The notes: generated from the sequence alone by a model not told the origin. DNA of 64,000 bases from Gaiellales bacterium (GCA_045806525.1 JBJMJD010000009.1:6626-70625); one strand, 5' to 3'. Numbered from the stretch's first letter, positions 40,586 through 55,502 are shown. A program made the numbers and translations.

Positions 40586-42151
40586 TTACAGCCCGTCGTG
40601 CACCATCCGGCCGATCGTCTCGTACTTGGCGCGGTCGTTCGATTTCAGATACAGCGCGTATCCGATACCTCCCACGAACACCAGCACGTCGATTATCACC
40701 AGGTACCAGGCGTAGGTGTAGCCGGCGCCGAGGAAGTCGATCTTATCGATCGCGACCCCCAGCACCGCCAGCTGACCAACCACCGAGATGATCGGGGCGA
40801 TCGTGTGGTTCCACATCCGGTGCTCACCCGGATGATGGGTGCGGAAGTAGTTCCAGATCGCCACCGACACCAGCGCCTGGATGAACAGGATCAACACCAC
40901 GCCCATGAATGCGGCCAGGCCGTAGAGCTGGACGTAGGCCTGCGACGACGCGGCGGTCTGGTTCGGAGCCGTCGTGGTGAAGAAGTAGAACGCCAGCACG
41001 ATCAGGGCCGCGATCACGGACTGCGCGATCGAGGCGATGTGCGGGCTGCGGTACTTCGGGTGCGTCCGGCCCAGCGCCGACGGCAGCACCTTCTCGCGTC
41101 CCAGCGAGTAGAGGTAGCGGGCCGTGGTGTTGTGGAAGGCCATGCCACACGCGAATGAGCCGGTGATGATCAGGTAGCTCATCACGTCGCTCAGGAACTG
41201 GTTGCCGAACTCCTTGGCCGGGGCGAGATAGAACGCTGCCGGGTCGGACACGGCCACCAGTGCCGCGTCGTGGGTGGTGAAGTACGACGAGAGCGCCGCC
41301 CACGAGGTGATGGTGTAGAAGATGCCCAGTCCGATCACCGAGACGTACATCGCCCTCGGCACGATCTTCTTGGGGTTGCGCGACTCCTCGCCGTAGTTAG
41401 GAGCCATCTCGAATCCCACCCACGACCAGAAGGCGAAGAACACGCCGACCGCCCATGCGCCGGCCGCGACTGCGTTGTCGCCGCTGCCGGATGCGGGCAG
41501 GTTCTTGAAGGCGTTCAGCGGGTTGATGGCCGCTGCCTGGATGTTGTTACCGCCGTGTCAGAACACGACCAGGTCGAAGATCAGCAGTGCGATCACCTCG
41601 CTGATCAGCGCCAGGCCCAGCACGCGTGCCGAGATGTGCACGTCGAAGTAGGCGAGGATCGAGATCAGCACGACCATGAACAGCGCGACGATCACCCATG
41701 AGGGGTGATAGCCGTACTGGGCGAGCTTGAGCGTGCCGAAGTATGCGAAGCCCCCGCACAGCGAGGCCTCGAACACCGAGTAGGCAACCACCATTGCGAG
41801 ACCACTGGCCATGCCCAACTCGCGGCCGAGCCCGTGGCTGATGAAGCTGTAAAAACCGCCCGCAGCGGTGACCTTGCGGGCCATGGATACGTACCCCACC
41901 GAGAAGATGGCGAGGATGACCGTCGCGAACGCAAAGCCGGCGGGTGTGCCGACGCCGTTGCCGTATCCGACTGACAGCGGCGTGTTGAAGAGCATTGCGG
42001 AGATCGGCGCCGCGCCGGTCACCGTCAGGAAGAGAACGCCGGCGAGACCAACGGCGCCGCCGTGCAGCTTCTGGACATCGTCGCGTTCGGAGACGTCGAC
42101 GCTGTCGATCTGGATCATCCCCTGATGGCCAGGGGGTTCCATGCCTTCCAC
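40586..42151 (-). pseudogene. APC-family amino acid permease interrupted by a single in-frame TGA (41558-41560)
   Basis: ORFs 41558..42535 and 40586..41443 are in the same frame. Read through, the junction is ...LIFDLVVF*HGGNNIQAAAINPLNAF...VFFAFWSWVGFEMAPNYGEESRNPKK. The total is 522 codons from GTG 42151, which is preceded by AAGGAGGG. Confidence 0.75.
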
Positions 42152-42195
42152 TTGTCCCTCCTTTGAGCATTGACCGGTATGGGCATCTGCCCGGG

Positions 42196-42660
42196 CTAGC
42201 TGACGGCTGCCACCTCCTTGTTCTCGCCCCCGTCGCGCGTCTCGCCGGCGGCGAGCGTCGCGACCAGGATGCGCTCGACGACGTCCCGCCACTCGTCCTG
42301 GCGGACTTCGACGCGATCGGGCAGCAGCCGGCGCCGCTTGACGTCGGCGTAGTGGTCCTTCGCGAGCACGTCGAAGGCGCCGATCGTGCGGATCACGATG
42401 CCGTAGTCGCCGGCGCCGACGAAGCTGCCGATCCAGTCGCCCGGCCGGCCGTCGTCTGCGAACACGCCCTCCTCGACGCCCTGCCAGTACGCGTGCTGGA
42501 ACAGGCAGCCGGCGACGCCGCGGTCCGTCCAGCATCCGGCGGTGACGGCTCGTTCACCGCGGCCGATGCCACGAAGCGCGAGCTGAAGGAGTTCGCGGCC
42601 GCGATCACTCTCGGCCAGGACGGCCAGATCGTCGCGCACCCTTTGCTCTTGCGGGTTCAT
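42196..42660 (-). CDS. Hypothetical protein (154 aa)
   Basis: ATG at 42660 lies 6 nt after GGAGG. No motif recognised. It is directly upstream of the permease. Confidence 0.45.
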   Translation of the reverse strand: MNPQEQRVRDDLAVLAESDRGRELLQLALRGIGRGERAVTAGCWTDRGVAGCLFQHAYWQGVEEGVFADDGRPGDWIGSFVGAGDYGIVIRTIGAFDVLAKDHYADVKRRRLLPDRVEVRQDEWRDVVERILVATLAAGETRDGGENKEVAAVS

Positions 42661-42827
42661 GTTTGACCTCCGCTCGTCGGATCTGGCCACGATAATGCCA
42701 GCTTGAACGCTTAGATACAAGGGTCTGGACGGCATCGCGGCACGCGATGTGCCGCCAGCACTGTCAACACGCGGGACGCCGTGCAACCCGGCCGATGACG
42801 GTTCGCCGGGCTCTCCGGAAGGGCGCC

Positions 42828-42865
42828 GGGTGATAGAGAGGTGCCGGGCACCGTCGTAACAGCCG
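42828..42865 (+). repeat. REP-like repeat, left copy
   Basis: GGGTGATAGAGAGGTGCCGGGCACCGTCGTAACAGCCG. It contains the hairpin GGTGCC-G-GGCACC and ends 11 nt before the transposase stop codon. Confidence 0.85.
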
Positions 42866-42876
42866 TTGCACCGCCG

Positions 42877-43599
42877 TTACATCGCCGCGACGACCCGCCG
42901 CCACGCGGTCATCTCGCTCACGCCTAGGTGAGTGGCGATCTGTGCATAGGTGTAGCCGTTGAGTCGAGCCGCTCGCAGTCCCTCTGGGCCGACGGGCTTC
43001 CCCGGCCGCAGGATCCCGATCAACGGCTTCGGATGCGACGATCGAATTTCGTGCCTCCCGTCCTCGACCCATTCTCGGAGCAATACTCGGGCTTCGTCCG
43101 GATCTGGGGAGAATCGGTCAAGCGTCGGTCGCACGCTTAGAAACGGCTCTCGCGGGCCATAGCCGAGAGTCGCGCGGCAGCTCGACCAGGGCCAGCCTTC
43201 GGGCCGCTTGCACAAACCCGCTCTCACGGGGTTGAGCGGGATGTACCGGATTACCTCGCGCAGGTGCTCGTCCGTGAGGATGAGGCCGTCGGAATATCGC
43301 CGCTGGAACAGATGCCCGATCCGCTCGTACTTCTCGTTGAAGCGATGGGCGTAGGTGCTGTTGAGCCACTGCATGCCGATCGCGATGTTCGGTTCGGGAG
43401 TCTCGATCAGCAGGTGGTAGTGGTTCGACATCAGGCAGTAGGCGTGAACCTTCCAGCCGTGGCGCTGCTTGGCCCGTGCGATCGTCTGTAGGAGCAACAC
43501 CCGATCCTCGTCCGAAGCGAAGATCTCGCGCCGGTTGTTCCCACGCATGGTGACGTGATAGAGGCCGCCGGCTACCTGGGGTCTGCGTCTTCGAGGCAT
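42877..43599 (-). CDS. IS200-like / REP-associated tyrosine transposase (Y1 HUH family) with C-terminal HTH
   Basis: 240 aa. Motifs GLYHVTMRGNNRREIF and AYCLMSNHYHLLIE (HUH = HYH). RYIPLNPVRAGL carries the catalytic Tyr context. Also WPWSS, and a C-terminal HTH GYTYAQIATHLGVSEMTAWRRV. Confidence 0.85.
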   Translation of the reverse strand: MPRRRRPQVAGGLYHVTMRGNNRREIFASDEDRVLLLQTIARAKQRHGWKVHAYCLMSNHYHLLIETPEPNIAIGMQWLNSTYAHRFNEKYERIGHLFQRRYSDGLILTDEHLREVIRYIPLNPVRAGLCKRPEGWPWSSCRATLGYGPREPFLSVRPTLDRFSPDPDEARVLLREWVEDGRHEIRSSHPKPLIGILRPGKPVGPEGLRAARLNGYTYAQIATHLGVSEMTAWRRVVAAM

Positions 43600-43659
43600 G
43601 GTTCGACGCTACCGGCGCCGGCTTCTCGTGTCTGTCACGGAACGGTCTCGGATCGGTGC

Positions 43660-43697
43660 CGGCTGTTACGACGGTGCCCGGCACCCCTCTATCACCC
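43660..43697 (-). repeat. REP-like repeat, right copy (inverted)
   Basis: CGGCTGTTACGACGGTGCCCGGCACCCCTCTATCACCC is the reverse complement of the left copy except for one base. It lies 60 nt upstream of the transposase start and 19 nt downstream of the BMC-T-like gene stop. Confidence 0.85.
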
Positions 43698-43716
43698 GCG
43701 ACCGGGCCGAGCGACG

Positions 43717-44322
43717 CTACGCGCCCTCCTGCAGCGCTTCCACCGCTGCCTGATATCCCTCCACGGCCTCTGCGTCGCGCCCGCTCATGATCAGCCGGCC
43801 GGTTGCGCCGAGCAGCGCCGCGTAGATCAGCTTCACCGGTGCTCGTTTCTCGGCCCGGTTGGCCGCCGTGGCGATGTAGGCCGCCGGGGTCGCCTCGATC
43901 AGGAACATCGTCTCGTCCTGCAGCAGCAGGTTCGCGCCGCCCATCCTGTTGATCAGCTGCGCCTGGTTGGGATGCACCCGCGTCACCAGCTCCGACGCCA
44001 CCACCTCCGGCCGCCTCGCGTCCGCCACCGTCAGCTTCAGCCGCTCCAGCACCGCCCGCGCCGCCTCCCGCACCGCAACCGGGTCGCGCCCGTGCAGCTC
44101 CAACGTCCCGTACTGCCGCTCCACCACCTGCAGCCCCGACCGCACGTCCGCGTTCTTCACCGCCGCGTTCACGAGCGAGAACACCTCGTTCGCCGGCGCC
44201 ACCTCCACGTACAGCTGCGCGAACCCCGCCGACGGCGGATCGCCCTGGCAGGTCTGCGCCACGTAGGCCGCCCACTGCGGCTGCATGGCGTCGATCTCGA
44301 CGAAGGCGCGGAGGTCGGCCAC
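43717..44322 (-). CDS. Divergent tandem-domain BMC shell protein (BMC-T-like)
   Basis: 201 aa, made of two roughly 100-aa halves. Each half aligns by eye to the in-window BMC-H core. Example: LIEATPAAYIATAANRAEKRAPVKL...GRLIMSGRDAEAVEGYQAAVEA against [25 protein letters not shown]...[21 protein letters not shown]. The first half reads LYVEVAPANEVFSLVNAAVKNADV...GTLELHGRDPVAVREAARAV. It is the last gene of the shell operon. Confidence 0.55.
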   Translation of the reverse strand: MADLRAFVEIDAMQPQWAAYVAQTCQGDPPSAGFAQLYVEVAPANEVFSLVNAAVKNADVRSGLQVVERQYGTLELHGRDPVAVREAARAVLERLKLTVADARRPEVVASELVTRVHPNQAQLINRMGGANLLLQDETMFLIEATPAAYIATAANRAEKRAPVKLIYAALLGATGRLIMSGRDAEAVEGYQAAVEALQEGA

Positions 44323-44324
44323 CT

Positions 44325-44570
44325 CTACCGGGACGGATCCACGATCGCGACCACCGCCGCGTCGGTCGGAACGCCGCGCGTCTGATCCGTCTCACGCGCC
44401 GCGCCGCCCATCGCGACCAGCACCATGTCGCCCTCTCCGGCGCCCACCAGATCCACCGCCACCAGCTCCCCGCCGCCCCCCACCGGGGTCACCGTCAGCA
44501 GGCTGAACCCGGTTAGCCCGGCCGCCTTCTGCGTCGCCACCGTGCTTCCCGTGACATGGCATCGCTGCAT
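44325..44570 (-). CDS. BMC vertex protein (BMC-P, EutN/CcmL family)
   Basis: 81 aa: VTGSTVATQKAAGLTGFSLLTVTPV...LVAVDLVGAGEGDMVLVAMGGAAR...DAAVVAIVD. This matches the EutN/CcmL pattern. Confidence 0.85.
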   Translation of the reverse strand: MQRCHVTGSTVATQKAAGLTGFSLLTVTPVGGGGELVAVDLVGAGEGDMVLVAMGGAARETDQTRGVPTDAAVVAIVDPSR

Positions 44571-44579
44571 CTCGTCCTC

Positions 44580-45056
44580 CTAGCTTTGCGGCCGCAGTCG
44601 CACGGCGCCGTCGAGGTCGTTCCAGGGAATGATCGCGTCCACCGCCGCCTGTATCCGGTTCAGCGCCATCAGCAGGTGCTCGATCACGACCGCGTACTCG
44701 CGCGACGTGTCCGGCCGCCACTCGGCCAGGATCGACGCCGCCCGACGCAGCAGCTGCACCGTCTCGGGCATCTCCCACTTCGCCGTCCGCGCCGCCGTCC
44801 GCTCCAGCAGCATCGCCGTCACCGAGCACAGCTCCGGCAGCCGCAGGTCGCCGTCCAGCGCCGCCTGCCGCACCACCTGCAGCTGCTCCCCGGCCCAGAA
44901 CAGGTCGAAGTTGCAGTACAGCACGCACGGCAGATTGCCCATCGGCGGCAGCGTGAACCGCCGCAGCGCCGCCACGTCCGGCGGCTCGCCGATCCAGCGG
45001 TCGACCGTGAACTCGCGCAGCTCCTCCACCAGCATCGCCGCCGACACGTAGGCCAT
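44580..45056 (-). CDS. Hypothetical protein (158 aa) embedded between shell genes
   Basis: ATG at 45056 shares one nt with the upstream stop (TGATG). The N-terminus MAYVSAAMLVEELREFTV looks like a short amphipathic helix. No family recognised. Confidence 0.45.
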   Translation of the reverse strand: MAYVSAAMLVEELREFTVDRWIGEPPDVAALRRFTLPPMGNLPCVLYCNFDLFWAGEQLQVVRQAALDGDLRLPELCSVTAMLLERTAARTAKWEMPETVQLLRRAASILAEWRPDTSREYAVVIEHLLMALNRIQAAVDAIIPWNDLDGAVRLRPQS

Positions 45057-45436
45057 CAGGCCAGCTCCATCCGCACCGGCAGCGATCCCGCCTCCAGGAT
45101 CTTGCGCCCGCACCGTGCCAGCCCATCCAGGTTGCTCCGCACGCGTGCCACATAGCTGACCTCGCCGAACGGCTGCGTTTCGCCGTAGAACAGGCACAGC
45201 GTCTGCCGACCCGGGTAGTAGCCGATGTCTCCCGCGACAACGTCGGTCTTGCCGTTCTCCTGCTCTGCGAAGAACGGCACCATGACGATCGTCTCCTCGC
45301 CCGCGAACTTGGCGTGCACCATCGTCGACTCGAACGGCAGGATCGAGCGGATATAGCCGCACACGCGCGGCGCATCGTCCACCAGCAGCTCGGCCTCGAT
45401 CACCTCGCCGTCGCAGAGGATGCGGATCGCCGGCAT
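45056..45436 (-). CDS. Small hypothetical protein, possibly cyclophilin-like fold (DUF3830-like, unverified)
   Basis: 126 aa: IRILCDGEVIEAELLVDDAPRVCGYIRSILPFESTMVHAKFAGEE...GDIGYYPGRQTLCLFYGE. From memory only, this pattern resembles cyclophilin-like DUF families. Confidence 0.4.
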   Translation of the reverse strand: MPAIRILCDGEVIEAELLVDDAPRVCGYIRSILPFESTMVHAKFAGEETIVMVPFFAEQENGKTDVVAGDIGYYPGRQTLCLFYGETQPFGEVSYVARVRSNLDGLARCGRKILEAGSLPVRMELA

Positions 45437-45438
45437 CC

Positions 45439-45735
45439 TCAGCGCTTCGCCGCGGCCGGTGCCACCGCCGCCGGCAGCACCTTCATCACGTCCTCGTGCG
45501 GCCGCGGGATCAGGTGCGCCGACACCAGCTCGCCGGTCTTCTTGGCCGCCGTCGCGCCGGCGTCGATCGCCGCCTTGACCGCACCCACGTCGCCACGCAC
45601 GGCAACGGTCACGTAGCCGCCGCCGATCGACTCGCGGCCAAGGATCTCGACGCTGGCCGCTTTCACCATCGCGTCCGCCGCTTCGATCGCGGCCACCAGC
45701 CCGCGCGTCTCGATCAGCCCCAGTGCTCCATCCAT
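45439..45735 (-). CDS. BMC hexamer shell protein (BMC-H, PduA/EutM type)
   Basis: 98 aa. [61 protein letters not shown] is near-consensus PF00936. Confidence 0.95.
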
Positions 45736-45749
45736 GTCTGCGTCCTCCT

Positions 45750-47546
45750 TTAGGACCCGTACCAGTCGAGGGTGTCAGTTCCGATGTTCAGGTGAATGTT
45801 CTTGGACTCCAGGTACTCGCTCAGCGACTCCAGCCCCAGGTCGTAGCCGGTGCCGCTCTCCTTGTATCCGCCGAACGGCGCCTCCGACGGGTAGACCCCG
45901 TACTGGTTGACCCAGATCGACCCGGCCTCCAGCCTATGCGCCACGCGGTGCGCGCGCCCGACGTCGCTCGTCCAGATCCCGGCCGCCAGCCCGTAGCGCA
46001 CGTCGTTCGCGATCCGCACCGCCTCATCCTCGCCGTCGAATGGCACGATCACCACCACCGGCCCGAAGATCTCCTCCTGCGCGATCCGCATGTCGTTTGA
46101 GCCCGCGAAGATCGTGGGCTCGATGAAGTTGCCGCCGGCCAGCTCCGGGTGCGACGGCCGCACGCCGCCGGCCACCACCGTCGCCCCCTCCGCCTTCCCG
46201 ATCTCGACGTACTCGTAGACGCGCTGGCACTGGCGCTCGTTGATCAGCGCACCCAGCTGAGTCGACCAGCGGTGCGGCATGCCGACCCGGATCCCGGACG
46301 CCTTGTCGGCGAACCGCCGCACGAACTCGTCGTAGACCGGCCGCTCGACCAGCACCCGCGACCCGGCCGAGCAGACCTCGCCCTGGGCCAGGTAGATGCC
46401 GAACACCGAGCCGATCACGGCCCGCTCCAGGTCGGCGTCGGCGAACACGATCGACGGCGACTTACCGCCCAGCTCCAGCGACACCCGCTTGATCGTGCCG
46501 GCCCCCGCCCGCATCACCGTGCGCCCGGTCACGGTCGACCCTGTGAACGCGATCTTGTCGACGCCGGGGTGCTCCGCCAGCGCCGCGCCCGCAGTCGCGC
46601 CCAGCCCCGGCACCACGTTCAACACTCCCGGCGGCAGCCCCGCCTCCAGCGCGATCCGGCCCAGCTCCAGGCACGTCAGCGGTGCCAGCTCGGGAGCCTT
46701 CAGCACGACCGTGTTACCGGCCGCCAGCGCCGCCGAGCCCTTGCGGCAGGCGATGTGCAGCGGAAAGTTCCAGGGGATGATCATGCCCACCACGCCCATC
46801 GGCTCCTTGCGCACGTAGTCGAGCGAGCTGGTCGGCATCGCCAGCACCCGCCCGTCGATCACGCGCACCAATCCCTGGTAGTAGCGCCACGGGTCCCAGC
46901 AGGCCGGCAGGTCGACCAGCGCCGCCTCGCGGATCGGCTTGCCGACGTCGTACGACTCGATCCGCGCCAGCCGGTCGCGGTCGGCCTCGATCAGCTCCGC
47001 TATCCGAAGCAGGATCCGCGACCGCCTCTCCGGCGCCATGTCGCGCCAGGCCGGCAGCGCGTCGCGCGCCGCGCGGACCGCCCGGTCGATGTCGTCGGGC
47101 CCGGCCGCCGCTACCTCCACGATCGTGCGGTTGGTGGCCGGATCGATCGTGGGCACGGTCTCACCGCCGGCGGCTTCGCGCCATTCGCCGTTGATCAGCA
47201 GCTTCGTCTGCAGCGAGCCGGTGTCGGGCAGGCCCTCGATCGGCGCACCGCCGGGCGCCGGCGGCCGGGAGCCGCCCTGCACCCGCCGCCCGGCGGCCGG
47301 CTGTTCGCGCACCAGCCCCGCCAATGCCGGCGCCGGCAAGCCGCCCGCGGTTACAGGAAGCGCCGCCACCACGTCGCCCGCGGGCTGGGGCTGGGACGTC
47401 GCGCCACCCTCGACCAGCCGCACGCCGTGCATCCGGGCCGCGTCCAGCGCCGCGTCGGTCAGCGTCGTGTGCTCGCGCACCATCAGCTCCCGCTCTCCCT
47501 GCTCGGCCAACGCGCGGATGTCGTCGGCGGTGACGAACTCCTTCAC
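45750..47546 (-). CDS. NAD(P)-dependent aldehyde dehydrogenase (hydrolytic type) with about 115-aa N-terminal extension
   Basis: GTG at 47546 overlaps the upstream stop (GTGA); 598 aa. The core starts near residue 115 ([11 protein letters not shown]). Hallmarks [33 protein letters not shown]. The extension is a roughly 46-aa module ([45 protein letters not shown]) plus a Pro/Gly/Ala linker. The remainder of track ORF 45750..49091 is a shadow. Confidence 0.9.
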
Positions 47547-48838
47547 CGCTGGATCCGCCCCACCAGAGGCACCCCGGTGATCGCCTCGCACTCGAGCGTC
47601 AGCGCGCGCAGATCCTCGGGCTCCAGGTTGTGCACGTCCGATTTTCCGCAGGCCCGCGCCAGCATCTGGATCTCCATGGTCATGGCGTTCAGGAAGTTCA
47701 CCACACGCTCGGTGGCCGAGTCTACGTCGAGCCGCGCCATCAGTTCCGGGTCCTGTGTGGTGACCCCGACAGGGCAGAGGCCGGTGTGGCACTCGCGGCA
47801 GGTGCCCGGCGCCACGCCGAGCCTGGCGTAGTCCTCCTCGTAGAGCGGCGCGTTGCAGTTGAGTGCGACCATCGCGGCGGTGGCGATGTAGACGGCGTCG
47901 GCGCCCAGCGCCAGCGCCTTGGCGGCATCGACGCCGTTGCGGATGCCGCCGGCTATCACGATCTGGACATCGCCGTAGGCGCCGATGTCGATCAGCGCCT
48001 CGCGGGCCTCGACCACCGCCGCCAGCGTGGGCACGCCGGTGTGGTCGAACAGCAGCAGCGGTGAGGCCGCCGACGCGCCCTCGAGCCCGTCGATCACGAC
48101 CACGTCGGCGCCGGCCTTGACCGCCAGCCGCACGTCGTCGAACACCCGGCAGGCGCCCAGCTTGACCCAGATCGGCACCCTGTGGCGGGTGGTCTCGCGC
48201 AGCTCCTCGATCTTCAGGCGCAGGTCGTCGGCGCCCAGGAAGTCGGGATGCCGCACCGGCGAGCGCTGGTCGACGCCGGGCGGCAGGTCGCGCATGCCGG
48301 CCACCTCGTCGGACACCTTGAAGCCCAGCAGCACGCCGCCGGTGCCGGGCTTGGCGCCCTGGCCGACCACGATCTCGACCGCATCCGCCTCCGCCATGTG
48401 GTGTGGGTTGTTGCCGTAGTGGCTGGGCGTCACCTGGTACACGAGCGTCTTCGACGCCGCCCGCTCGCGCGGGTGCATGCCGCCGTCGCCGGTGGTGGTG
48501 GAAATGCCAACCTGCGACGCCGCCCGGCCGAGCGCCTCCTTTGCATTCGCCGAAAGCGCTCCGAAGCTCATGCCCGAGATCGCGATCGGCGTCTCCAGCA
48601 CAACCGGGTTCGCGGCCCTCGTTCCCAGTGTGGTGCGGGTCTGGCAACGCTCGCGGTAGCCCTCCAGCGGCACTCGTGACAGCGTGCACGGGATGAAGGT
48701 GAGGTCGTCGAAGTTGGGCACCCGGCGGGTGGTCGAGAAGGCGCCCATCACGTACCGCCCGAGCTCGGCCTTCTGGCGGATGTCGGCCAGCGTCTCCTGC
48801 GACCAGACGTGGCTGGGACGGGACGGGTGCTCGATCAC
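47543..48838 (-). CDS. Glutamate-synthase-type FMN subunit (GltB domain 2 / N-methylglutamate synthase subunit C-like)
   Basis: GTG at 48838 overlaps the upstream stop (GTGA); 431 aa. Motifs LEGYRERCQTRTTLG, PIAISGMSFGALSANAKEALGRAA, TTTGDGGMHPRER, GQGAKPGTGG, IAGGIRNG. Confidence 0.85.
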   Translation of the reverse strand: MIEHPSRPSHVWSQETLADIRQKAELGRYVMGAFSTTRRVPNFDDLTFIPCTLSRVPLEGYRERCQTRTTLGTRAANPVVLETPIAISGMSFGALSANAKEALGRAASQVGISTTTGDGGMHPRERAASKTLVYQVTPSHYGNNPHHMAEADAVEIVVGQGAKPGTGGVLLGFKVSDEVAGMRDLPPGVDQRSPVRHPDFLGADDLRLKIEELRETTRHRVPIWVKLGACRVFDDVRLAVKAGADVVVIDGLEGASAASPLLLFDHTGVPTLAAVVEAREALIDIGAYGDVQIVIAGGIRNGVDAAKALALGADAVYIATAAMVALNCNAPLYEEDYARLGVAPGTCRECHTGLCPVGVTTQDPELMARLDVDSATERVVNFLNAMTMEIQMLARACGKSDVHNLEPEDLRALTLECEAITGVPLVGRIQR

Positions 48839-49545
48839 AGCGCGTCCCTCCAGATCGAGAACTCCTTCTTGTCGTAGCGCCACAGCTTCCCGGCCGAGCG
48901 CACCTTCTGCCACTCGCCGGCAGGCGCGAGGCCGTGACTACCGCAGAGGTCGGCCAGCCAGGCCAGCTCGTCGGCGGACGGTGGCTCGCAAACCGTGTCT
49001 GAGCCCAGCTCGGCGATGCGGCCACCGCAGAACAGCTCACCCTCGTACATCGAGTCGCCGAACCCGGGCCCGGCGTCGCCGCACACCACAAGCCGCGTGC
49101 GCTGGTTCATGAACCCCGACATGTACCCGGTGGATCCGCCGATCACCAGCGTGCCGCCCTTGCCGGCGATCGCCGACCGCGCGCCCGCGTCGCCCTTGAC
49201 GACCACCAGCCCGCCGCGCATCGAGGCGCCGGTGGAGCTGCCGCTATTTCCGCCCACGACGATGCTGCCGTCCATCATGTCGGCGCCCAGCGACCAGCCT
49301 GCGTTGCCGTCAACGGCAACGTCCAGCCCGTCGGACAGGCCGCCGCAGAAGTAGCCGACGTCGCCGCGGAACCGGACGGCCGCGCCGGGGTGGTCAAGGA
49401 AGCCCACCGCCAGGCTGTGCCGAGATCCCGGGTGCAGTACGTCCACCGTTCCGGCTCCGTCGTGCAGCAGCTGCCGTAGGCGGTCGTTGATCTGGCGCGT
49501 GCTGAGGCCCTGCGCGTCCAGCGTGGCCGGCGCTAGCGTGTCCAT
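48835..49545 (-). CDS. GXGXG-motif protein (GltB domain 3 / N-methylglutamate synthase subunit B-like)
   Basis: 236 aa. Beta-helix repeats VDGNAGWSLGADMMDGSIVVGGNSGSSTGASMRGGLVVVKGDAGARSAIAGKGGTLVIGG. Confidence 0.85.
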   Translation of the reverse strand: MDTLAPATLDAQGLSTRQINDRLRQLLHDGAGTVDVLHPGSRHSLAVGFLDHPGAAVRFRGDVGYFCGGLSDGLDVAVDGNAGWSLGADMMDGSIVVGGNSGSSTGASMRGGLVVVKGDAGARSAIAGKGGTLVIGGSTGYMSGFMNQRTRLVVCGDAGPGFGDSMYEGELFCGGRIAELGSDTVCEPPSADELAWLADLCGSHGLAPAGEWQKVRSAGKLWRYDKKEFSIWRDAL

Positions 49546-50450
49546 GCCCGCGCCTCGCCGCCCGCCAGCTCGTAGGTGTCGAAGTCGGCGCGGTCGCCGA
49601 ACGCCTCGGCCAGGGCGATGCCTTCGCTGACGACGGCCACCCAGTCGTCGGTCTCGGCCACCAAACAGGGCTTCGTGGAGAAGCGGTCGCGCGCGACGCC
49701 GAAGCCCTCGGCGGTCGACACCAGATAGGTGAAGGATCCATCTAGGTCGTCGATCGAGTCGCGCACAGCATCGTCCAGCGGCACGCCGGCCGCCATCCGG
49801 TCGGCCAGGTACACCGCGACGAACTCGGTGTCGTTGCCGGTCTGGAAACGGTGGCCGCGCATCTCGAACAGGCGCCGGTTCTTGTAGTAGTTGGTGACGT
49901 GGCCGTTGTGGACGACGGTCACGTCTGGGAACGGTCGCGCCCAGAACGGGTGCGAATGGTTCACGTCAACCCGCGACTCGGTCGCCATTCGGGCGTGACC
50001 GATCGCGTGGCTGTAGCTCGTTCCCAGCACGCCGAACCGCTCCGCCAGCTCGCGGGCGTCGGACGTGTGCTTGAGCAGCTCCAGCGATGTGCCGACCGAG
50101 AACACCCTCACGCCGGGTGCGCTGCGCTCGATCGCATCGGCCAGCGCCCCGATGTCACCGTCACCGCCGTTTCGCGCCAGCCCCAGCCGCCAGTAGCCGT
50201 CGCGGAACTGCTGGTCGGAGAGCTCGAACCCGGCCTCCGAGACGCCGTCGGACACCGCCGCGCGCGTGGCCTCACCGCCGGCCTCGCCGGCCCAGGCCGA
50301 AGCCACCAGGTCGCCCTGGAAGGGTGCGCCGTAGAGCGACAGCCCGGTCGAGTCCGGCCCGCGGCCGCGCAGCGCGGCAAGCATCGCCGTCAGCGTGGCG
50401 GCGACATCGACGCCGTCACGCTTTGCAAGGAATCCGGCGATGCCGCACAT
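49533..50450 (-). CDS. Class-II (Ntn) glutamine amidotransferase (GltB domain 1 / N-methylglutamate synthase subunit A-like)
   Basis: 305 aa, starting MCGIAGFL with nucleophile Cys2. Also RGPDSTG and HARMATES...HPF. Confidence 0.85.
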   Translation of the reverse strand: MCGIAGFLAKRDGVDVAATLTAMLAALRGRGPDSTGLSLYGAPFQGDLVASAWAGEAGGEATRAAVSDGVSEAGFELSDQQFRDGYWRLGLARNGGDGDIGALADAIERSAPGVRVFSVGTSLELLKHTSDARELAERFGVLGTSYSHAIGHARMATESRVDVNHSHPFWARPFPDVTVVHNGHVTNYYKNRRLFEMRGHRFQTGNDTEFVAVYLADRMAAGVPLDDAVRDSIDDLDGSFTYLVSTAEGFGVARDRFSTKPCLVAETDDWVAVVSEGIALAEAFGDRADFDTYELAGGEARAWTR

Positions 50451-50486
50451 GGATGCGACCCTACGCGCTCGGCGGCCGGTGCGTGA

Positions 50487-50501
50487 TGTGCACGATGCAC
50501 A
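50487..50501. promoter_or_regulatory. Inverted repeat TGTGCA-CGA-TGCACA in the 60-nt gap upstream of the amidotransferase gene
   Basis: A 6-bp perfect inverted repeat. It shares the octamer TGTGCACG with the repeat at 55520-55542. It could alternatively be a weak hairpin. Confidence 0.3.
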
Positions 50502-50510
50502 CCCTGCCGC

Positions 50511-51998
50511 TCACCGGGCCAGGTCGGCGAAGGCCGGCGCCAGCGCGTCGAACAGCAGCCGGTAGCGGCGGTAGCCCTGCTCGTAGGCGGCCGCAGCATC
50601 AGGGTCGGGATGGTGCTGCTCGGACGCCAGACGGCACATCGCCGCGGCCGCGGCCGGTACGTCCGCGTGCAACTCGCCGCCCGCGGCTGCCAGCATCGCG
50701 GCGCCACGGGAGGTCGTCTCGACGTCCTCGCTGTATCCGACCGGCAGCCCCGTCACGTCGGCGCGCATCTGACGCACCAGGGCCGAGCGCGCGCCGCCTG
50801 CCACGCAGACCACGCGCTGGCAGCCGAGCCCGGCTGCGGTGATGGCCTCGACGACGTCGCGCAGCGCGTAGGCCGAGCCCTCGAGCAGCGCCCGCACGAG
50901 GTGTCCGCGCCCGTGCGCGGGCGTCAGCCCGTACCAGGCGCCACGGGCTTCCGCCTCCCAGCGAGGCGCCATGGCGCCGCCCATCCAGGGCAGGAACACG
51001 AGCCCTTCGCTGGCCGCCGGCACCGCCTCGGCCGCCCGGTTGAGAGCCTCGTAGTCGGCACCGCCGCCCAGCTCGTCGCGGAACCAGCGGTAGTTGGCGC
51101 CGCTCGCCCAGCCCGGGTTCTCGAGCAGCCAGCGGCCGGGTGCGGCGTGGGGATGGCACTCGGCCACGCGACCGGCGTCGCGCAGCGGCCGGTCGCTGAC
51201 CGCACACACGGGCTCCGCTGTGCCGAGCACGTCGCAGACGGCGCCAGGCTCGGCCAGGCCGGCGCCCAGCGTGGCCGCCATCTCGTCGCCGCACCCACAG
51301 ATCACGAGCGCCTTCTCGCCGAGCCCGGTGGCGTCGGCGAACCCGGCGCTGACAGTGCCGAGCACCGCGTCGGCGGACACGACCGGCGGCAGCAACTCGG
51401 CGTCGATGCCGAACGCATCCAGCAGCGTCGTGTCCCAGCTGCCGGTGTCCGGATCGAGCAGCATGGTGGAGGACGCATTCGACCGGTCGACCGCGTCGGC
51501 TCCGCAGGCAACGCGCACCATGTACGAGCCGGGAAGCAGCGCCCGTGCCGTCCGCGCGTAGTCGTCGGGACGCTCCTGCGCGACCCAGGCCAGCTTCGCC
51601 GCCACATGCGACCCGTCCAGGTTGCAGCCCGACCGCCGGTACCACTCGTCGGCGTCGACGCGCGCCTCGGCCTGCCGGCAGAGCGGGTCGGCGCGGCGGT
51701 CCATCCAGATGATCGCGGGGCCGACCGGCTGCGCGTTGCGGTCGACGCAGACCAGCCCGTCCAGCTGCGAGCCGAACGAGATCGCCCGCACCCGGCGCAG
51801 GTTCACCCGTGCCGCCAGGTCGCGGAACCCGTTCACCAGCGCCGCGCGCCAGTCACGCGGGTCCTGCTCCACCCAGCCCGGACGCGGGTAGCGGAGCGGG
51901 TGCGGCTGGTATGTGGTGGCCAGCCGTTCGCCGGCCGCATCGAACACCGACAGGCATGACCCCTGCGAGCCGACGTCGATGCCGCAGACCAGCTCCAC
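50511..51998 (-). CDS. FGGY-family carbohydrate/polyol kinase
   Basis: 495 aa. Motifs VCGIDVGSQGS, GWVEQDP, PAIIWMDRRA, and the C-terminal FGGY half GGGARS. Confidence 0.85.
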   Translation of the reverse strand: MELVCGIDVGSQGSCLSVFDAAGERLATTYQPHPLRYPRPGWVEQDPRDWRAALVNGFRDLAARVNLRRVRAISFGSQLDGLVCVDRNAQPVGPAIIWMDRRADPLCRQAEARVDADEWYRRSGCNLDGSHVAAKLAWVAQERPDDYARTARALLPGSYMVRVACGADAVDRSNASSTMLLDPDTGSWDTTLLDAFGIDAELLPPVVSADAVLGTVSAGFADATGLGEKALVICGCGDEMAATLGAGLAEPGAVCDVLGTAEPVCAVSDRPLRDAGRVAECHPHAAPGRWLLENPGWASGANYRWFRDELGGGADYEALNRAAEAVPAASEGLVFLPWMGGAMAPRWEAEARGAWYGLTPAHGRGHLVRALLEGSAYALRDVVEAITAAGLGCQRVVCVAGGARSALVRQMRADVTGLPVGYSEDVETTSRGAAMLAAAGGELHADVPAAAAAMCRLASEQHHPDPDAAAAYEQGYRRYRLLFDALAPAFADLAR

Positions 51999-52001
51999 GC
52001 G

Positions 52002-53054
52002 TCAGCCGTTCGGGGCGACGACGACCTTCAGCGCCTCACCCGAGCGGATGCGCTGAAAGGCCGCCGGCGTGTCGTCCAGCGAGACAACATCCGACACGAC
52101 CCCGCGGATGTTGTGCGTGTTGCGGCGCAGCATCTCCAGCGCCTGCACCTGGTCGCGGTGCCGGGAGGCGTAGCTGCCGTGCACCGCCACCTCGCGGTAG
52201 TGCAACACGTTGGAGGGGAAGGCGATCGTGGTCGTGCCCTTGGGCAGTCCGCCGAAGTACAGCACCCGGCCCCGCGGCGCCGCCATCTCCATGGCCTGCT
52301 CCTGCGCCTGCACGTTCGAGCACGCCACGATCACGCGGTCGGCTCCGTCGCCGGTCTCGTCCTTGATGAACTGCACGGGGTCGATGCCGGTGGTGTCGAC
52401 GTACCGGACGTTCGCGTCGTTCAGCACTCCGCGGGCCAGATCCAGCCGGCCGGCCGAGGTCTCGAGCAGGTAGACGAGATCGGCGCCCTGCGCCAGCGCC
52501 AGCGCCACATGCGCGGTGCCGACCGGGCCGGCCCCGATCACGACCACGTGCTGCTCGAGCCCGATGTCGAGGTCCTTGTGGCCGCAGATCGCATCCGAGA
52601 GCGGGTCGGCGAACGTGGCGTGCACCGGGTCCAGGCCATCCGGGAGCACGAACACGTTCTTCAGCGCCACCTGCGGTACCGCGACCAGCTCGGTGTAGGC
52701 GCCCTGGTAGTCGAAGCCCATCAGGCCGCCGTTCTGGCAGAGGTGCTCGTTGCCGCCGCGGCAGAGGCTGCAGTGGCCACAGTAGAGCGTCGAGATCACG
52801 TGCACGGTGTCGCCGACTGCGGCCGCCAGGTCGGCGCCCGCGTCCGGTCCGATGTCGAGCACCTCACCGCAGATCTCGTGTCCCAGCACCGCGCCAGGCT
52901 GGATCCGGCGGTCGCCGTTGAAGAAGGTGCGCACGTCGGTGCCGCAGATCCCGCAGGCGGTCACGCGCAGCAGGCAGCCGTCGGCCGGGCAGGTCGCATC
53001 CGCGACCTCGCCCAGGTGCATCTCGCCCGGCCCGTCCCATATCGCCGCCCTCAT
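52002..53054 (-). CDS. Zinc-dependent alcohol/polyol dehydrogenase (MDR family)
   Basis: 350 aa. Catalytic Zn motifs CGICGTDV and GHEICGEV, structural Zn Cys cluster CGHCSLCRGGNEHLC, and Rossmann VVVIGAGPVG. Confidence 0.85.
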   Translation of the reverse strand: MRAAIWDGPGEMHLGEVADATCPADGCLLRVTACGICGTDVRTFFNGDRRIQPGAVLGHEICGEVLDIGPDAGADLAAAVGDTVHVISTLYCGHCSLCRGGNEHLCQNGGLMGFDYQGAYTELVAVPQVALKNVFVLPDGLDPVHATFADPLSDAICGHKDLDIGLEQHVVVIGAGPVGTAHVALALAQGADLVYLLETSAGRLDLARGVLNDANVRYVDTTGIDPVQFIKDETGDGADRVIVACSNVQAQEQAMEMAAPRGRVLYFGGLPKGTTTIAFPSNVLHYREVAVHGSYASRHRDQVQALEMLRRNTHNIRGVVSDVVSLDDTPAAFQRIRSGEALKVVVAPNG

Positions 53055-53103
53055 GAGCCGCTGATCGTATCGTGAAACCGCTCGCCCGGGCAGGCCGCGT
53101 GGG

Positions 53104-53784
53104 TCACCCGGCGTGGGCGGCTCCGCGCGCGGCGCCCAGGATCGCCGTCAGCTGGGCGGCCAGGTCGCCGCCCGGCACGAACTCGCCGTTGAGCGCGGCC
53201 GTCCCGACCGTGAAGGCCCACACGCCAAGCGCCGACAGCTCCTCGATCCGCGCCACCGAGTCGACCGAGCCGGCGCAGATCAGCGGCAGGCTGGTGGTCT
53301 CGGAAACCCGACGCACCAGCTCGGCGACGTCGCCGTCGTAGCGGTATGCCAGCAGGTTGATCCCGTCCACGCCCTGCGCCTCGACGCGGCGGGCGTCCTC
53401 GCAGATCTCGTCGATCGTTCCCCGCAGCAGGCAGGGATGTCCGACGATGCGGCCGATGTAGGGGAAGTAGCGCATCCCCGACCCCTCGATGATGCGCTGC
53501 ACATCCTGCACCTGCGTTCCGCCGATCAGGTAGTCGGGGTGCACCCGCATCGCCGCCTCGGCTGAGCGCAGCTCGTCCTCGAGCGTGGCCGACACCACCT
53601 CCAGGTGGGTGGTCGCCCCGGCCGCGCGGGCCGAGTCCAGGAACGCCGCGAGCTCCGCCTCGGGCAGGCCGATGTCCTTGCAACCGACGTGGCTGACACC
53701 CACCGTTGTCACGTCTGCGAACACCTCCTGGGCGTCCGTGAGCGTCTTGTCGTCGCGGGTCAGCATGAAGATGAACTCAGGCAT
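53104..53784 (-). CDS. TIM-barrel-like protein of unknown function
   Basis: ATG at 53784 lies 5 nt after GAGGAG; 226 aa. EFIFMLTRDD... and ...PLICAGSVDSVARIEELSALGVWAFTVGTAAL show a distant, from-memory resemblance to ribulose-phosphate-binding barrels of the GlpP/NanE type. Confidence 0.4.
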   Translation of the reverse strand: MPEFIFMLTRDDKTLTDAQEVFADVTTVGVSHVGCKDIGLPEAELAAFLDSARAAGATTHLEVVSATLEDELRSAEAAMRVHPDYLIGGTQVQDVQRIIEGSGMRYFPYIGRIVGHPCLLRGTIDEICEDARRVEAQGVDGINLLAYRYDGDVAELVRRVSETTSLPLICAGSVDSVARIEELSALGVWAFTVGTAALNGEFVPGGDLAAQLTAILGAARGAAHAG

Positions 53785-53798
53785 GTCGTCTCCTCGGG

Positions 53799-55502
53799 TC
53801 AGGGTTGCACGGTGCTCCGGAACCGCACCAGCCGGACCGCAAGGCCCAGCTCGAACCAGCTGCCCGGCTCCCGCACGTCGCGGTCGATGATCTCTCCGAT
53901 CCGGCGCAGGCGCTGGCGGAGGGTGTTGCGGTGGATGAACAGCGCCTCGGCCGAGCGACGGGCGTTGCCATGCTGCTCGAGGTAGACCTCGAGCGTCCGG
54001 AACAGCTGGCTGCCACGGCGTGCATCCGTCTCCTGCAGCCGCACCAGCGCCAGCTCCAGCGGGTCGGGGTCGCCTTCGCGGGAGATCGTCCACAGGTGCC
54101 GCTGTGCGCCCAGCGCCTGGTAGCTCCGCACGCCGCTGCCCCCGGCGCGGGCAATCGTGGCGGCGATCCGGGCCTGACGCACGGCGCTCTGCGGATCGTC
54201 GCCGGCGGGCTCGCTGATGCCGGCTCCGGCGCCCGGGGGCAGCGACCGGGCCAGCAGCTGCTCGAGCCGCGGCCGCCAGCTCTGGCTGGCGATCGGCACC
54301 AGCGCCGACAGCTCATGCGCGCGCGCGTCGATCACGGTCTGTGGGAAGCTGCCCGCGAGCTGCTCGCCGAGCGCGCCCCATAGCCGGTCGGGGTCGCCTC
54401 CCGCCGCGGCCTCCGCCAGCACCACCACATGGGGCCGGTCGAGCGGCACCGACTCACCCGCTCGCAGCGCCTCGAACAGCTGCCGTGCCCGCGTCCGCTG
54501 GGCGGCGGCGTCGCGCCGTCGATCCTCCTCGAGAGCCAGCGCGGCATGGTTGGCTATGGTCGCGATCAGCTCGGTGTTGTCGGTCGAGAGAACGCGTCGC
54601 TCCTGCGAGAAACAGAGCAGCACGCCGGTCGGCCGTCCCTCCAGCCGCACCGCAGCGGCGAACAGGGAGCGCGCACGCGGGTGCAGCGCCAGCTCGGGCG
54701 CGTCGTCCAGCGCGATGCTGGCCGGCCCGCCGCCCAGCAGCCGGGCCCAGGCGCGGGTCGCTGCGATCGGCTCACCGCTCAGCCGGGCCTGGTCGCTTGA
54801 TGCCCAGGCCTCCACCAGCAGCCGATCACGCGCCGCGTCGAACCGCAGCAGGGCCGCCAGCGAGCCGTCCAGCAGCTCCATGGTCGCGATCGCGAGACGG
54901 TGCATGGTCTCGCGTGGGCTGGCCGAGGTCATCCGGTGCGAGAGGTCGGCCAGCCGACGGAACACGTCCACGCTGCGCAGCGCCCGCTCGTGCAGCTGCG
55001 CGTTCTCGACCGCGCCGGCGACCAGGCTGGCGATCGTCTCCAACATCGTCACATCGGAGTCGCTGAACTCGTGCGGCGCCTCGGTGTGCAGGGTCAGCAC
55101 TCCCAGCAGCTGGCCGGAACGGCCCACCACCGGCACCGTCGCCACCGACTGGAAGCGCTCGTCATTGAGGTCGGGCACGTACCGGTAGCGCGCATCCTCG
55201 AGTGGGCGCTCGGTGATGATCCCGGCCTGTCGGGTGAGCGCAGTCCAGCCGGTAAGGCCCTCGCCCATGCCCAGCGAAAAGCGCCCGATCCACTCGGTGT
55301 AGCCGTCGATCGCGCCGCGCACCACCAGCCGCTCCTGCTCGGAGTCCCACAGGTAGACGAGGGCGCCCTGGCAGCGGGTCAGCTCGGCGCAGACCGCTAT
55401 CGCCTCCTCCAGCACGCGGTCGAGGTCGAGGCTGGAGTTGACGCGCGAGGCCAGCGCCGAGATCGCCTCGAGATCGCGCGCGTGCTCCTCGACCCGCACC
55501 AT
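53799..55502 (-). CDS. GAF-domain / PucR-family transcriptional regulator
   Basis: ATG at 55502; 567 aa. N-terminal GAF (LDLDRVLEEAIAVCAELT...GEGLTGW) and a second GAF-like region. C-terminal PucR HTH LFRTLEVYLEQHGNARRSAEALFIHRNTLRQRLRRIGEI. The upstream part of track ORF 53799..56321 is a shadow. Confidence 0.8.
   Translation of the reverse strand: MVRVEEHARDLEAISALASRVNSSLDLDRVLEEAIAVCAELTRCQGALVYLWDSEQERLVVRGAIDGYTEWIGRFSLGMGEGLTGWTALTRQAGIITERPLEDARYRYVPDLNDERFQSVATVPVVGRSGQLLGVLTLHTEAPHEFSDSDVTMLETIASLVAGAVENAQLHERALRSVDVFRRLADLSHRMTSASPRETMHRLAIATMELLDGSLAALLRFDAARDRLLVEAWASSDQARLSGEPIAATRAWARLLGGGPASIALDDAPELALHPRARSLFAAAVRLEGRPTGVLLCFSQERRVLSTDNTELIATIANHAALALEEDRRRDAAAQRTRARQLFEALRAGESVPLDRPHVVVLAEAAAGGDPDRLWGALGEQLAGSFPQTVIDARAHELSALVPIASQSWRPRLEQLLARSLPPGAGAGISEPAGDDPQSAVRQARIAATIARAGGSGVRSYQALGAQRHLWTISREGDPDPLELALVRLQETDARRGSQLFRTLEVYLEQHGNARRSAEALFIHRNTLRQRLRRIGEIIDRDVREPGSWFELGLAVRLVRFRSTVQP

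Follow-up and report, generated by a model that had tools for sequence, protein, structure and literature searches.

The stretch analysed here, 64,000 nt of a Gaiellales bacterium (GCA_045806525.1, JBJMJD010000009.1:6626-70625; hereafter the window), carries at the 3' end of a bacterial microcompartment (BMC) operon a single open reading frame (ORF) of 240 amino acids (aa) that lies between two inverted repeats and encodes an HUH/Y1 protein of the REP-associated tyrosine transposase (RAYT) family, REP standing for repetitive extragenic palindrome. The kind is already known: RAYT-like genes with long terminal inverted repeats (TIRs) on either side were described under the names 'TIRYT' and 'TIRtron' by Di Nocera, De Gregorio & Rocco in 2013 (PMC3733652), and the element in the window fits this class, which has been equated with TnpA-Y1 subclass 2.1, on each feature tested. 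A repeat search of the window found the arms at 42827-42865 and 43660-43698, 39 nt long and 97% complementary, in agreement with the 38-nt inverted repeats with a single mismatch noted in a preliminary description of the sequence; the hairpin GGTGCC-G-GGCACC given there for each repeat appears in both arms as a central palindrome GGTGCC-S-GGCACC. Matches to the 38-mer with up to three mismatches occur at just these two places in the 64 kb, where shuffles predict 0.00. The stop codon of the last shell gene, BMC-T (43717-43719), is separated from the nearer repeat by 18-19 nt, as previously reported (19 nt). The features of the locus, including a C-terminal helix-turn-helix (HTH) of the nuclease, are as follows.

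43660-43698, minus strand: TIR-L, the upstream terminal inverted repeat, found by the repeat search, its 38-mer invariant across syntenic type-A loci (alignment A1); it consists of an outer 'head' GGGTGATAGAG, a central GGTGCCGGGCACC hairpin and an inner arm GTCGTAACAGCCG
43600-43659, minus strand: inner tail of TIR-L, from the hairpin to the ATG, with degenerate GTGAC-type pentamers (GCAC / GAGAC / GTGAC) at ~11-nt spacing
42877-43599, minus strand: HUH/Y1 nuclease gene of RAYT/TIRYT type, 240 aa, with a catalytic core (~1-150), a linker (151-200) and a three-helix HTH (205-239)
42866-42900, plus strand: inner tail of TIR-R, with TTGCA / GTTAC / GCGAC pentamers, overlapping the last codons and the stop of the nuclease gene
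42827-42865, plus strand: TIR-R, the downstream terminal inverted repeat, the reverse complement of TIR-L with one mismatch
42800-43727, no strand assigned: hypervariable cassette, comprising the gene, both TIRs and an unconserved margin of ~27-29 nt outside each; compared with locus L008, identity is 45-75% inside and 92-100% outside
43717-44322, minus strand: BMC-T shell gene (CsoS1D_N / BMC domain), with which the BMC operon ends and which adjoins the slot as its conserved upstream neighbour
42661-42799, minus strand: highly conserved leader/putative promoter region of a 154-aa gene and a permease gene, forming the conserved right edge of the slot and lying outside the element

The 240-aa product matched Pfam Y1_Tnp (E 6e-15) and scored 103.7 bits against the NCBIfam equivalog NF047646, 'REP-associated tyrosine transposase' (cut-off 80), whereas the IS200 model NF033573 remained below its cut-off (18.1 vs 55 bits). 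Its sole sequence match in the PDB was 4ER8, the structure of E. coli TnpA-REP in complex with a REP hairpin (E 1e-8), and 4er8_A was also the top PDB fold match (TM 0.78 on the target, rmsd 2.7 Å) of an AlphaFold model derived from 40 homologues (pLDDT 91.4), ahead of the IS608, ISDra2 and IS200 transposases. The HUH histidines H60 and H62 (NHYHLL) and the catalytic Y119 (RYIPLNPV) are invariant in the 40 homologues, as are N123 and P124 of the 'Y---NP' signature that marks class 2; W138-S139-S140 show little or no variation. The last 36 residues adopt three helices in the model (205-213, 218-225 and 229-239) and score as an HTH just under the Pfam thresholds (Sigma70_r4_2, 24.0 vs 25.7; HTH_23, 23.4 vs 24.6), with precomputed HTH_23, HTH_28 and HTH_38 matches present on close homologues. 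Both earlier statements about the protein are thereby borne out, namely that it is an HUH/Y1 transposase with a C-terminal HTH and that it belongs to the RAYTs rather than to ordinary IS200 transposases. Quentin, Siguier, Chandler & Fichant (2018; PMC6006769) characterise TnpA-Y1 class 2 subclass 2.1 by Y---NP, a serine motif and a C-terminal HTH_23/HTH_28/DnaA_C-like domain, report it at low copy in 14.9% of strains and state that it 'probably corresponds to the TIRYT'. The C-terminal HTH probably places the window's enzyme with TIRYT / subclass 2.1 and not with the canonical GTAG-REP RAYTs, an assignment to subclass that rests on domain architecture and motifs. The GC content of the gene is 63%, and 0.79 at third codon positions (GC3) vs 0.88-0.96 in the adjacent genes; this lower GC is common to all alleles examined.

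Alignment of 19 copies of the repeat, with tail motifs counted on 42 unique tails, revealed a composite full unit of ~75-79 nt in which three CGTGAC motifs, spaced 11 nt apart, come after a 38-nt imperfect hairpin, the order being a G-run head GGGTGATAGAG, the apical hairpin, the arm GTCGTAACA and the three motifs. GTGAC occupies tail offsets 2, 13 and 24 in 19, 23 and 25 of the 42 tails, respectively, reaching a density of 1.76 per tail vs 0.057 expected, and tandem copies recur with a 79-nt period (L014, L027; L numbers denote loci fetched for comparison). Around the nuclease gene itself, such iterons lie between hairpin and ATG in alleles A, B, E and F. The tetranucleotide GTAG is absent from both strands of the 38-mer, which excludes the canonical GTAG-REP subtype but not the enzyme family. 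Two variants share clusters with type A, the type present in the window: 'GGAACGG' (D-type) and a fully palindromic GATAGAA/TTCTATC form, which fold as strong 38-nt imperfect DNA hairpins (z -5.5 and -8.3, respectively). As judged from the aligned sequences, type A looks chimeric, as though the left arm of the palindromic variant and the right arm of the GGAACGG variant had been joined at their shared apex. Partial tandem duplications of the TIR outer end were also observed in L002 (2862-2916 and 3711-3760), L003 and L004, and on the right side only in L001; on the left, GGTGATAGAGGGGTGCC precedes the full TIR and the breakpoint is exactly the hairpin apex, while on the right TCTCTATCACC occurs twice. 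L002-L004, three of the four contigs (L001-L004) carrying P0003, end 82-137 nt beyond the gene. Apex breakpoints and a chimeric TIR-A could both result if strands broke or templates were switched at the apex, of which they are no proof. A CGTC-tagged REP family, considered since CGTC follows the hairpin, was dropped because the published families, whose stems measure 8-9 bp and include AT base pairs and whose loops measure 4-5 nt (PMC3733652), are unlike this repeat.

To survey dispersal, GTDB was scanned at one genome per species with the invariant 21-nt core GGTGCCGGGCACCGTCGTAAC. Exact matches were retrieved at 29 loci, nearly all of them in metagenome-assembled genomes (MAGs) of Gaiellales or 'uncultured Actinomycetes', with 3-9 exact cores on different contigs in each Gaiellales MAG. 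MFD05442, SMAG_U1443 and SMAG_U15821 (L036, L015 and L011/L031) carry a nuclease allele 93-94% identical to that of the window between the same 38-mer flanks, plus a further 2-7 exact cores, mostly intergenic, away from the nuclease gene. The family is thus found elsewhere in three related genomes with the same allele and the same 38-mer, rather than being confined to the element, an outcome that the preliminary description had held open. The best-sampled MAG has no fewer than 13 hairpin units, distributed over 6 loci; when the fetched loci were scanned by Hamming distance, each cluster was seen to hold 1-4 units, and the clusters are almost all intergenic when genes are called from GC3. Most copies are found a short way behind a gene, and several independent loci have the repeat head beginning 6-19 nt past a stop codon in the same orientation. 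Inverted dimers (L012, L018, L021, L030, L032, L039), whose heads point outward like those of the pair bracketing the gene, are matched in frequency by singlets and head-to-tail tandems (L014, L027, L028, L037). No nuclease homologue was detected near the dispersed clusters in the 400 kb of locus DNA scanned, and each MAG has one TIR pair spaced by 825 nt. The repeat is therefore a real, dispersed, non-autonomous and small family. REPs that are both numerous and intergenic had been anticipated; the copies are mostly intergenic, but with 3-9 exact cores per related MAG they are not numerous.

Two further observations concern individual copies. One 38-mer lies in frame within the gene of the Lhr DNA-repair helicase (1415 codons), where it encodes GDREVPGTVVTC in the linker between WH3_Lhr and WH4_Lhr; this insertion occupies the same site in four species (L017 4536-4573, L016 1600-1637, L020 7790-7827 and L029 7231-7268). 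It echoes the report that intragenic REPs are often found in replication and repair genes (PMC3733652). Exact cores also occur on contigs binned to other families, namely a Gemmatimonadaceae MAG (L035, 29-49, at the contig end), a Streptosporangiaceae MAG (L038, 5866-5886) and a Thermoleophilaceae MAG (L022), for which mis-binned Gaiellales contigs seem more likely than horizontal spread.

The genomic position of the nuclease gene is fixed. In 23 of the 23 related contigs that carry a homologue and reach either the shell gene or the downstream leader/hyp154 gene, it directly follows BMC-T, with which it is co-directional. Close homologues (84-94% aa identity) occur in the same order, that is, BMC-T, nuclease, 154-aa gene and permease, and in alignment A1 of the syntenic type-A loci the coding sequence differs by ~10-15% and the 38-mers are invariant. 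Distant alleles are likewise placed right after BMC-T (L007, 61%; L008, 57%; L049, 57%). What follows downstream at L049 is a divergent GntR gene, which ties the nuclease to the 3' end of the BMC operon. More distant homologues with the same architecture lie in unrelated surroundings (L048, L051). The search for an empty site turned up none, and all eight metagenome contigs retrieved by means of the conserved, putative promoter downstream as an anchor carry the gene. The notion of an insertion that marks the boundary between the BMC locus and the permease module hence stands as regards position, the element being located where the BMC operon ends on its 3' side, also in a lineage with other genes downstream; since no strain lacking it was found, the 'insertion' is ancient at best. 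In L007 (ERZ25039464 contig_19804) the aldehyde dehydrogenase, permease and peptidase M20 genes are fragmented, which suggests long-read frameshift errors, and the sequence and TIR of this allele C, with indels between its arms, should accordingly be treated with caution.

Within this fixed slot the element proved to be a hypervariable island. Seven neighbouring proteins of L008 are 94-100% identical to those of the window, whereas the nuclease is 57% identical and the TIR is a different 43-mer. A 60-nt sliding comparison delimited a sharp island from ~43730 to ~42800 that comprises the gene together with the two TIRs and ~28 nt beyond either of them; within it, identity amounts to 45-75% with L008 and 53-90% with L043, and the flanks are at 92-100%. 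Alleles within the slot share 57-94% of their amino acids. The ratio of nonsynonymous to synonymous divergence (dN/dS, Nei-Gojobori) of the nuclease is 0.09-0.28 and below 1 in every domain, evidencing purifying selection, and the dS of the gene is 2-10-fold that of the genes beside it (L043, 0.90 vs 0.07-0.18; L008, 1.30 vs 0.08-0.22), values that the lower GC3 of the gene may inflate somewhat but whose saturation it cannot explain. Uniform divergence in place was rejected as an explanation, because this excess does not track the divergence of the flanks. By these measures the nuclease alleles are much older than the surrounding DNA; either the flanks have been homogenised by recombination while divergent alleles persisted, or alleles have been imported by homologous recombination through the conserved flanks.

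Protein and repeat vary together. Alleles A and D are mosaic with respect to each other, with 87% identity in the core, 74% in the linker and 61% in the HTH (dS 0.67, 1.19 and 2.21, respectively), and the TIR arms change between them from GATAGAG to GGAACGG. Inverted, allele-specific flanking repeats are also present in alleles B-F, and the TIR arms differ from one allele to the next among B, C, D, E, F and G, mostly around the conserved GGTGCCGGGCACC core; the TIRs of alleles D, E and F measure 54-69 nt and are 78-81% complementary. Among the more distant homologues, L049 and L051, the two with an examinable upstream flank, show GTGAC-like motifs before the ATG. Dispersed D-type repeats are also present in allele-A genomes, as if alleles had replaced one another over time. 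One possible account of these patterns is that matched nuclease and target cassettes form an ancient, recombining polymorphism in the slot, in which mosaic lineages 55-80% identical, each with its own hairpin arms, evolve fastest in HTH and linker while the flanks are homogenised. We advance it tentatively and would give it less than even odds. If it were true, the slot would amount to a natural series of specificity swaps that could show that the subclass 2.1 HTH reads the repeat arms and that TIRYTs act on REP-like hairpins, and would thereby supply the missing REP-hairpin link for the second-largest TnpA-Y1 subclass.

We interpret the whole element as a TIRtron/REPtron, that is, a single-copy, long-resident class 2 HUH/Y1 nuclease-ligase gene bracketed by its cognate inverted hairpin repeats, and assign this reading a probability of roughly three in four. 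It draws together the family assignment, the repeat architecture and its dispersal, the conserved slot, purifying selection and the co-variation of protein and repeat. Of the RAYT with cognate REPs initially envisaged, the cognate inverted repeats flanking the gene are retained; the repeat unit is longer and composite, and the HTH points to TIRYT / subclass 2.1. The element may also be domesticated, as was proposed. Catalytic activity, cleavage sites, the role of the HTH and any benefit to the host are inferred. Established knowledge of HUH enzymes such as E. coli TnpA-REP and IS608 TnpA would suggest that the protein recognises the folded hairpin on single-stranded DNA, for instance at replication forks, and cleaves and rejoins DNA beside it by means of Y119 and an HUH-bound metal. 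Such cleavage and rejoining could create, move or maintain the non-autonomous copies, while the enzyme's own gene would no longer multiply. The C-terminal HTH probably adds a sequence-specific contact, to double-stranded DNA or to an arm, with either the variable repeat arms or the GTGAC iterons as its target.

Several points weigh against this interpretation. Subclass 2.1 is without biochemical evidence, and no REP-like structures were reported next to subclass 2.1 genes (PMC6006769). The type-A repeat folds weakly (z -1.9). Many of the dispersed copies are at orthologous positions in different species, so the copies may be old and static, and copy number is low, so that recent or ongoing mobilisation is unproven. 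The dispersal counts moreover come from related MAGs, the window's genome being outside the GTDB representatives, among which the best nuclease match is 94%; a look-up by exact sequence likewise returned no protein identical to the nuclease.

The same data allow other explanations to be weighed against a TIRtron/REPtron. A recent landing of an ordinary autonomous insertion sequence (IS) of IS200/IS605 type between the BMC operon and the permease genes would account for the Y1_Tnp domain and for a GC3 (0.79) below that of the neighbours (0.88-0.96), and close homologues on many ~1-kb metagenome contigs in large clusters could be taken as a possible sign of multiple copies. A multi-copy IS, as suggested by these contigs and a 202-member cluster, was nevertheless rejected, since the short contigs represent the same syntenic locus; each locus has a single copy, positionally conserved and under purifying selection, and none elsewhere in the 400 kb of locus DNA, where the preliminary description had considered multiple identical copies. 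The slot is also occupied in lineages whose alleles are just 57-61% identical, the IS200 profile is below cut-off, the ends are symmetric and inverted, and the single ORF is unaccompanied by tnpB. A recently landed IS is therefore largely refuted, and we regard it as very improbable. Co-option as a DNA-binding regulator or architectural factor of the BMC operon, with the HTH on the phased GTGAC iterons and the nuclease activity secondary or lost, would suit a gene that is always directly 3' of BMC-T and co-directional with it, even with different genes downstream, that conserves its HTH and that, in alleles A, B, E and F, has iterons at the 11-nt helical repeat between hairpin and ATG. The catalytic HUH and Tyr residues are invariant, however, and the core is under purifying selection; homologues of the same architecture lie in surroundings that are unrelated (L048, L051), genes of unrelated kinds are followed by the same repeats, and one would not expect a regulator specific to the slot to vary more than any other gene of its locus. 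On balance a co-opted regulator seems unlikely.

We are similarly sceptical that the repeats are mainly 3'-end hairpins of host RNA or DNA, acting as terminators or mRNA stabilisers, with the nuclease gene merely lying between two of them. The position of the head, 6-19 nt after a stop codon and in the same orientation at several independent loci, would fit such a role, as would the high stability of the D-type and palindromic variants as RNA or DNA hairpins (z -5.4 to -8.3), and REPs in general are found predominantly downstream of coding regions (PMC3733652). Nonetheless, neither a terminator-like site (T-run) nor a sigma-70-like promoter was found in 42500-43900, no Rfam family matched in 42100-44000, and the type-A repeat in its mRNA-strand context after BMC-T has a fold that does not surpass those of shuffled sequences (z +0.26 and -0.93), results that lend no support to the suggested use of the right repeat as terminator or stabiliser of the BMC operon; such a role is conceivable in no more than the loose sense in which REPs at large are known to have it. 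Co-variation of the repeat arms with the nuclease allele is likewise unexpected for a purely host-driven hairpin, and one copy is in frame within the Lhr gene.

Beyond this locus, about 15% of sequenced strains have subclass 2.1 / TIRYT enzymes, which are without a known substrate or function, and their link to REP repeats has explicitly been left open (PMC6006769). The locus offers a compact test case, combining a 38-nt hairpin with variable arms, phased GTGAC iterons, few non-autonomous copies and natural enzyme/repeat allele pairs in near-identical backgrounds. Old alleles with matched arms in young flanks could make a common, uncharacterised enzyme subclass experimentally tractable. A RAYT-type gene that is positionally fixed and yet the most divergent of its neighbourhood is also awkward for the picture of a vertically inherited, housekeeping-like gene. 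For annotation of the window, the element is otherwise unremarkable: it shows where the BMC operon stops at its 3' end, and it stands outside the BMC pathway.

The neighbouring genes yielded some observations of their own. BMC-T orthologues are annotated PF27545 CsoS1D_N, and the BMC-T of the window has a BMC domain (Pfam). The BMC locus (window ~43700-54000; positions 1-10000 in L006 and L008) has an unusual gene set, with an aldehyde dehydrogenase bearing an N-terminal extension, BMC-H, a cyclophilin-like DUF3830 protein, EutN, BMC-T and a 158-aa protein without a family that is 99-100% conserved; Glu_synthase/FMN_dh-like, GATase_6/7, FGGY kinase and Zn-ADH genes are located upstream. On the other side of the element, the non-coding leader (42661-42799, minus strand) is 97-100% identical across strains, which is above the surrounding coding genes, and holds TTGTAT-17 nt-CATTAT as well as a palindrome CATCGCG-TGC-CGCGATG at ~42735-42755; it likely provides promoter and operator for the unit of the 154-aa gene and the permease. 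The amino-acid permease gene (40586-42151, minus strand) has an in-frame TGA at codon 198 (window 41558-41560) that splits it into two ORFs; at this codon L008 reads GGG and L001 reads GCC, in an intact gene (521 aa). The TGA could be a nonsense mutation giving a pseudogene, a sequencing error or a case of recoding.

Among known systems, TIRYT/TIRtron elements are the nearest. They have in common with the element described here a RAYT-like Y1 enzyme with a C-terminal HTH_23-like HTH, Y---NP and a serine motif after the tyrosine helix, low copy number and long flanking TIRs, whose families are moderately abundant as singles, dimers or clusters and include some self-complementary TIRs (PMC3733652). 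In that study, many TIRtron TIRs have a GGGGWSAS motif; the head (C/G)GGGTGAT and the iteron (C)CGTGAC resemble it, with just 6-7 of 8 positions matching for the head. The TIR in the window differs in being a REP-like imperfect hairpin with a conserved GGTGCCGGGCACC apex and in carrying three phased CGTGAC iterons, and the element differs in forming a hypervariable island in a fixed slot and in its host, Gaiellales (Actinomycetota); the word 'Actinobacteria' is absent from PMC6006769, PMC3733652 and PMC5581495. Relative to these three studies, the REP-like hairpin TIR with conserved apex, the phased GTGAC iterons and the behaviour as a hypervariable island are novel.

Canonical REP-RAYT and REPIN-RAYT systems (E. 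coli TnpA-REP, 4ER8; Pseudomonas Groups 2 and 3, PMC5581495) resemble the element, whose Y1 gene is apparently single-copy too, in their vertically persisting single-copy Y1 gene, in inverted palindromic flanks that are dispersed between genes, in the pairing of each enzyme with its own repeat, in fold and catalytic motifs, and in REPIN-like inverted dimers, here seen at several loci. They are unlike it in copy number, which here amounts to tens at most and not hundreds, as well as in the GTAG tag, which is missing here, the extra HTH, the ~75-79-nt unit and the age of the alleles, which in the slot are much older than their flanks and are not congruent with the host. Bertels et al. (2017; PMC5581495) counted ~12 copies per replicon for the 16-mers flanking Group 1 RAYTs and 57-140 for Groups 2 and 3, and the abundance of flanking oligomers observed here is nearer to that of Group 1. 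With IS200/IS605 elements (IS608, ISDra2) the element has in common the HUH/Y1 fold and end hairpins presumably recognised on single-stranded DNA. Cleavage sites of IS200/IS605 type read TTAC and TTGAT, of which the GTGAC/GTAAC-like motifs found here are reminiscent. In contrast to those elements, the one in the window appears not to be multi-copy, has symmetric inverted ends, lacks tnpB, bears Y---NP rather than Y---Q and falls below the cut-off of the IS200 model.

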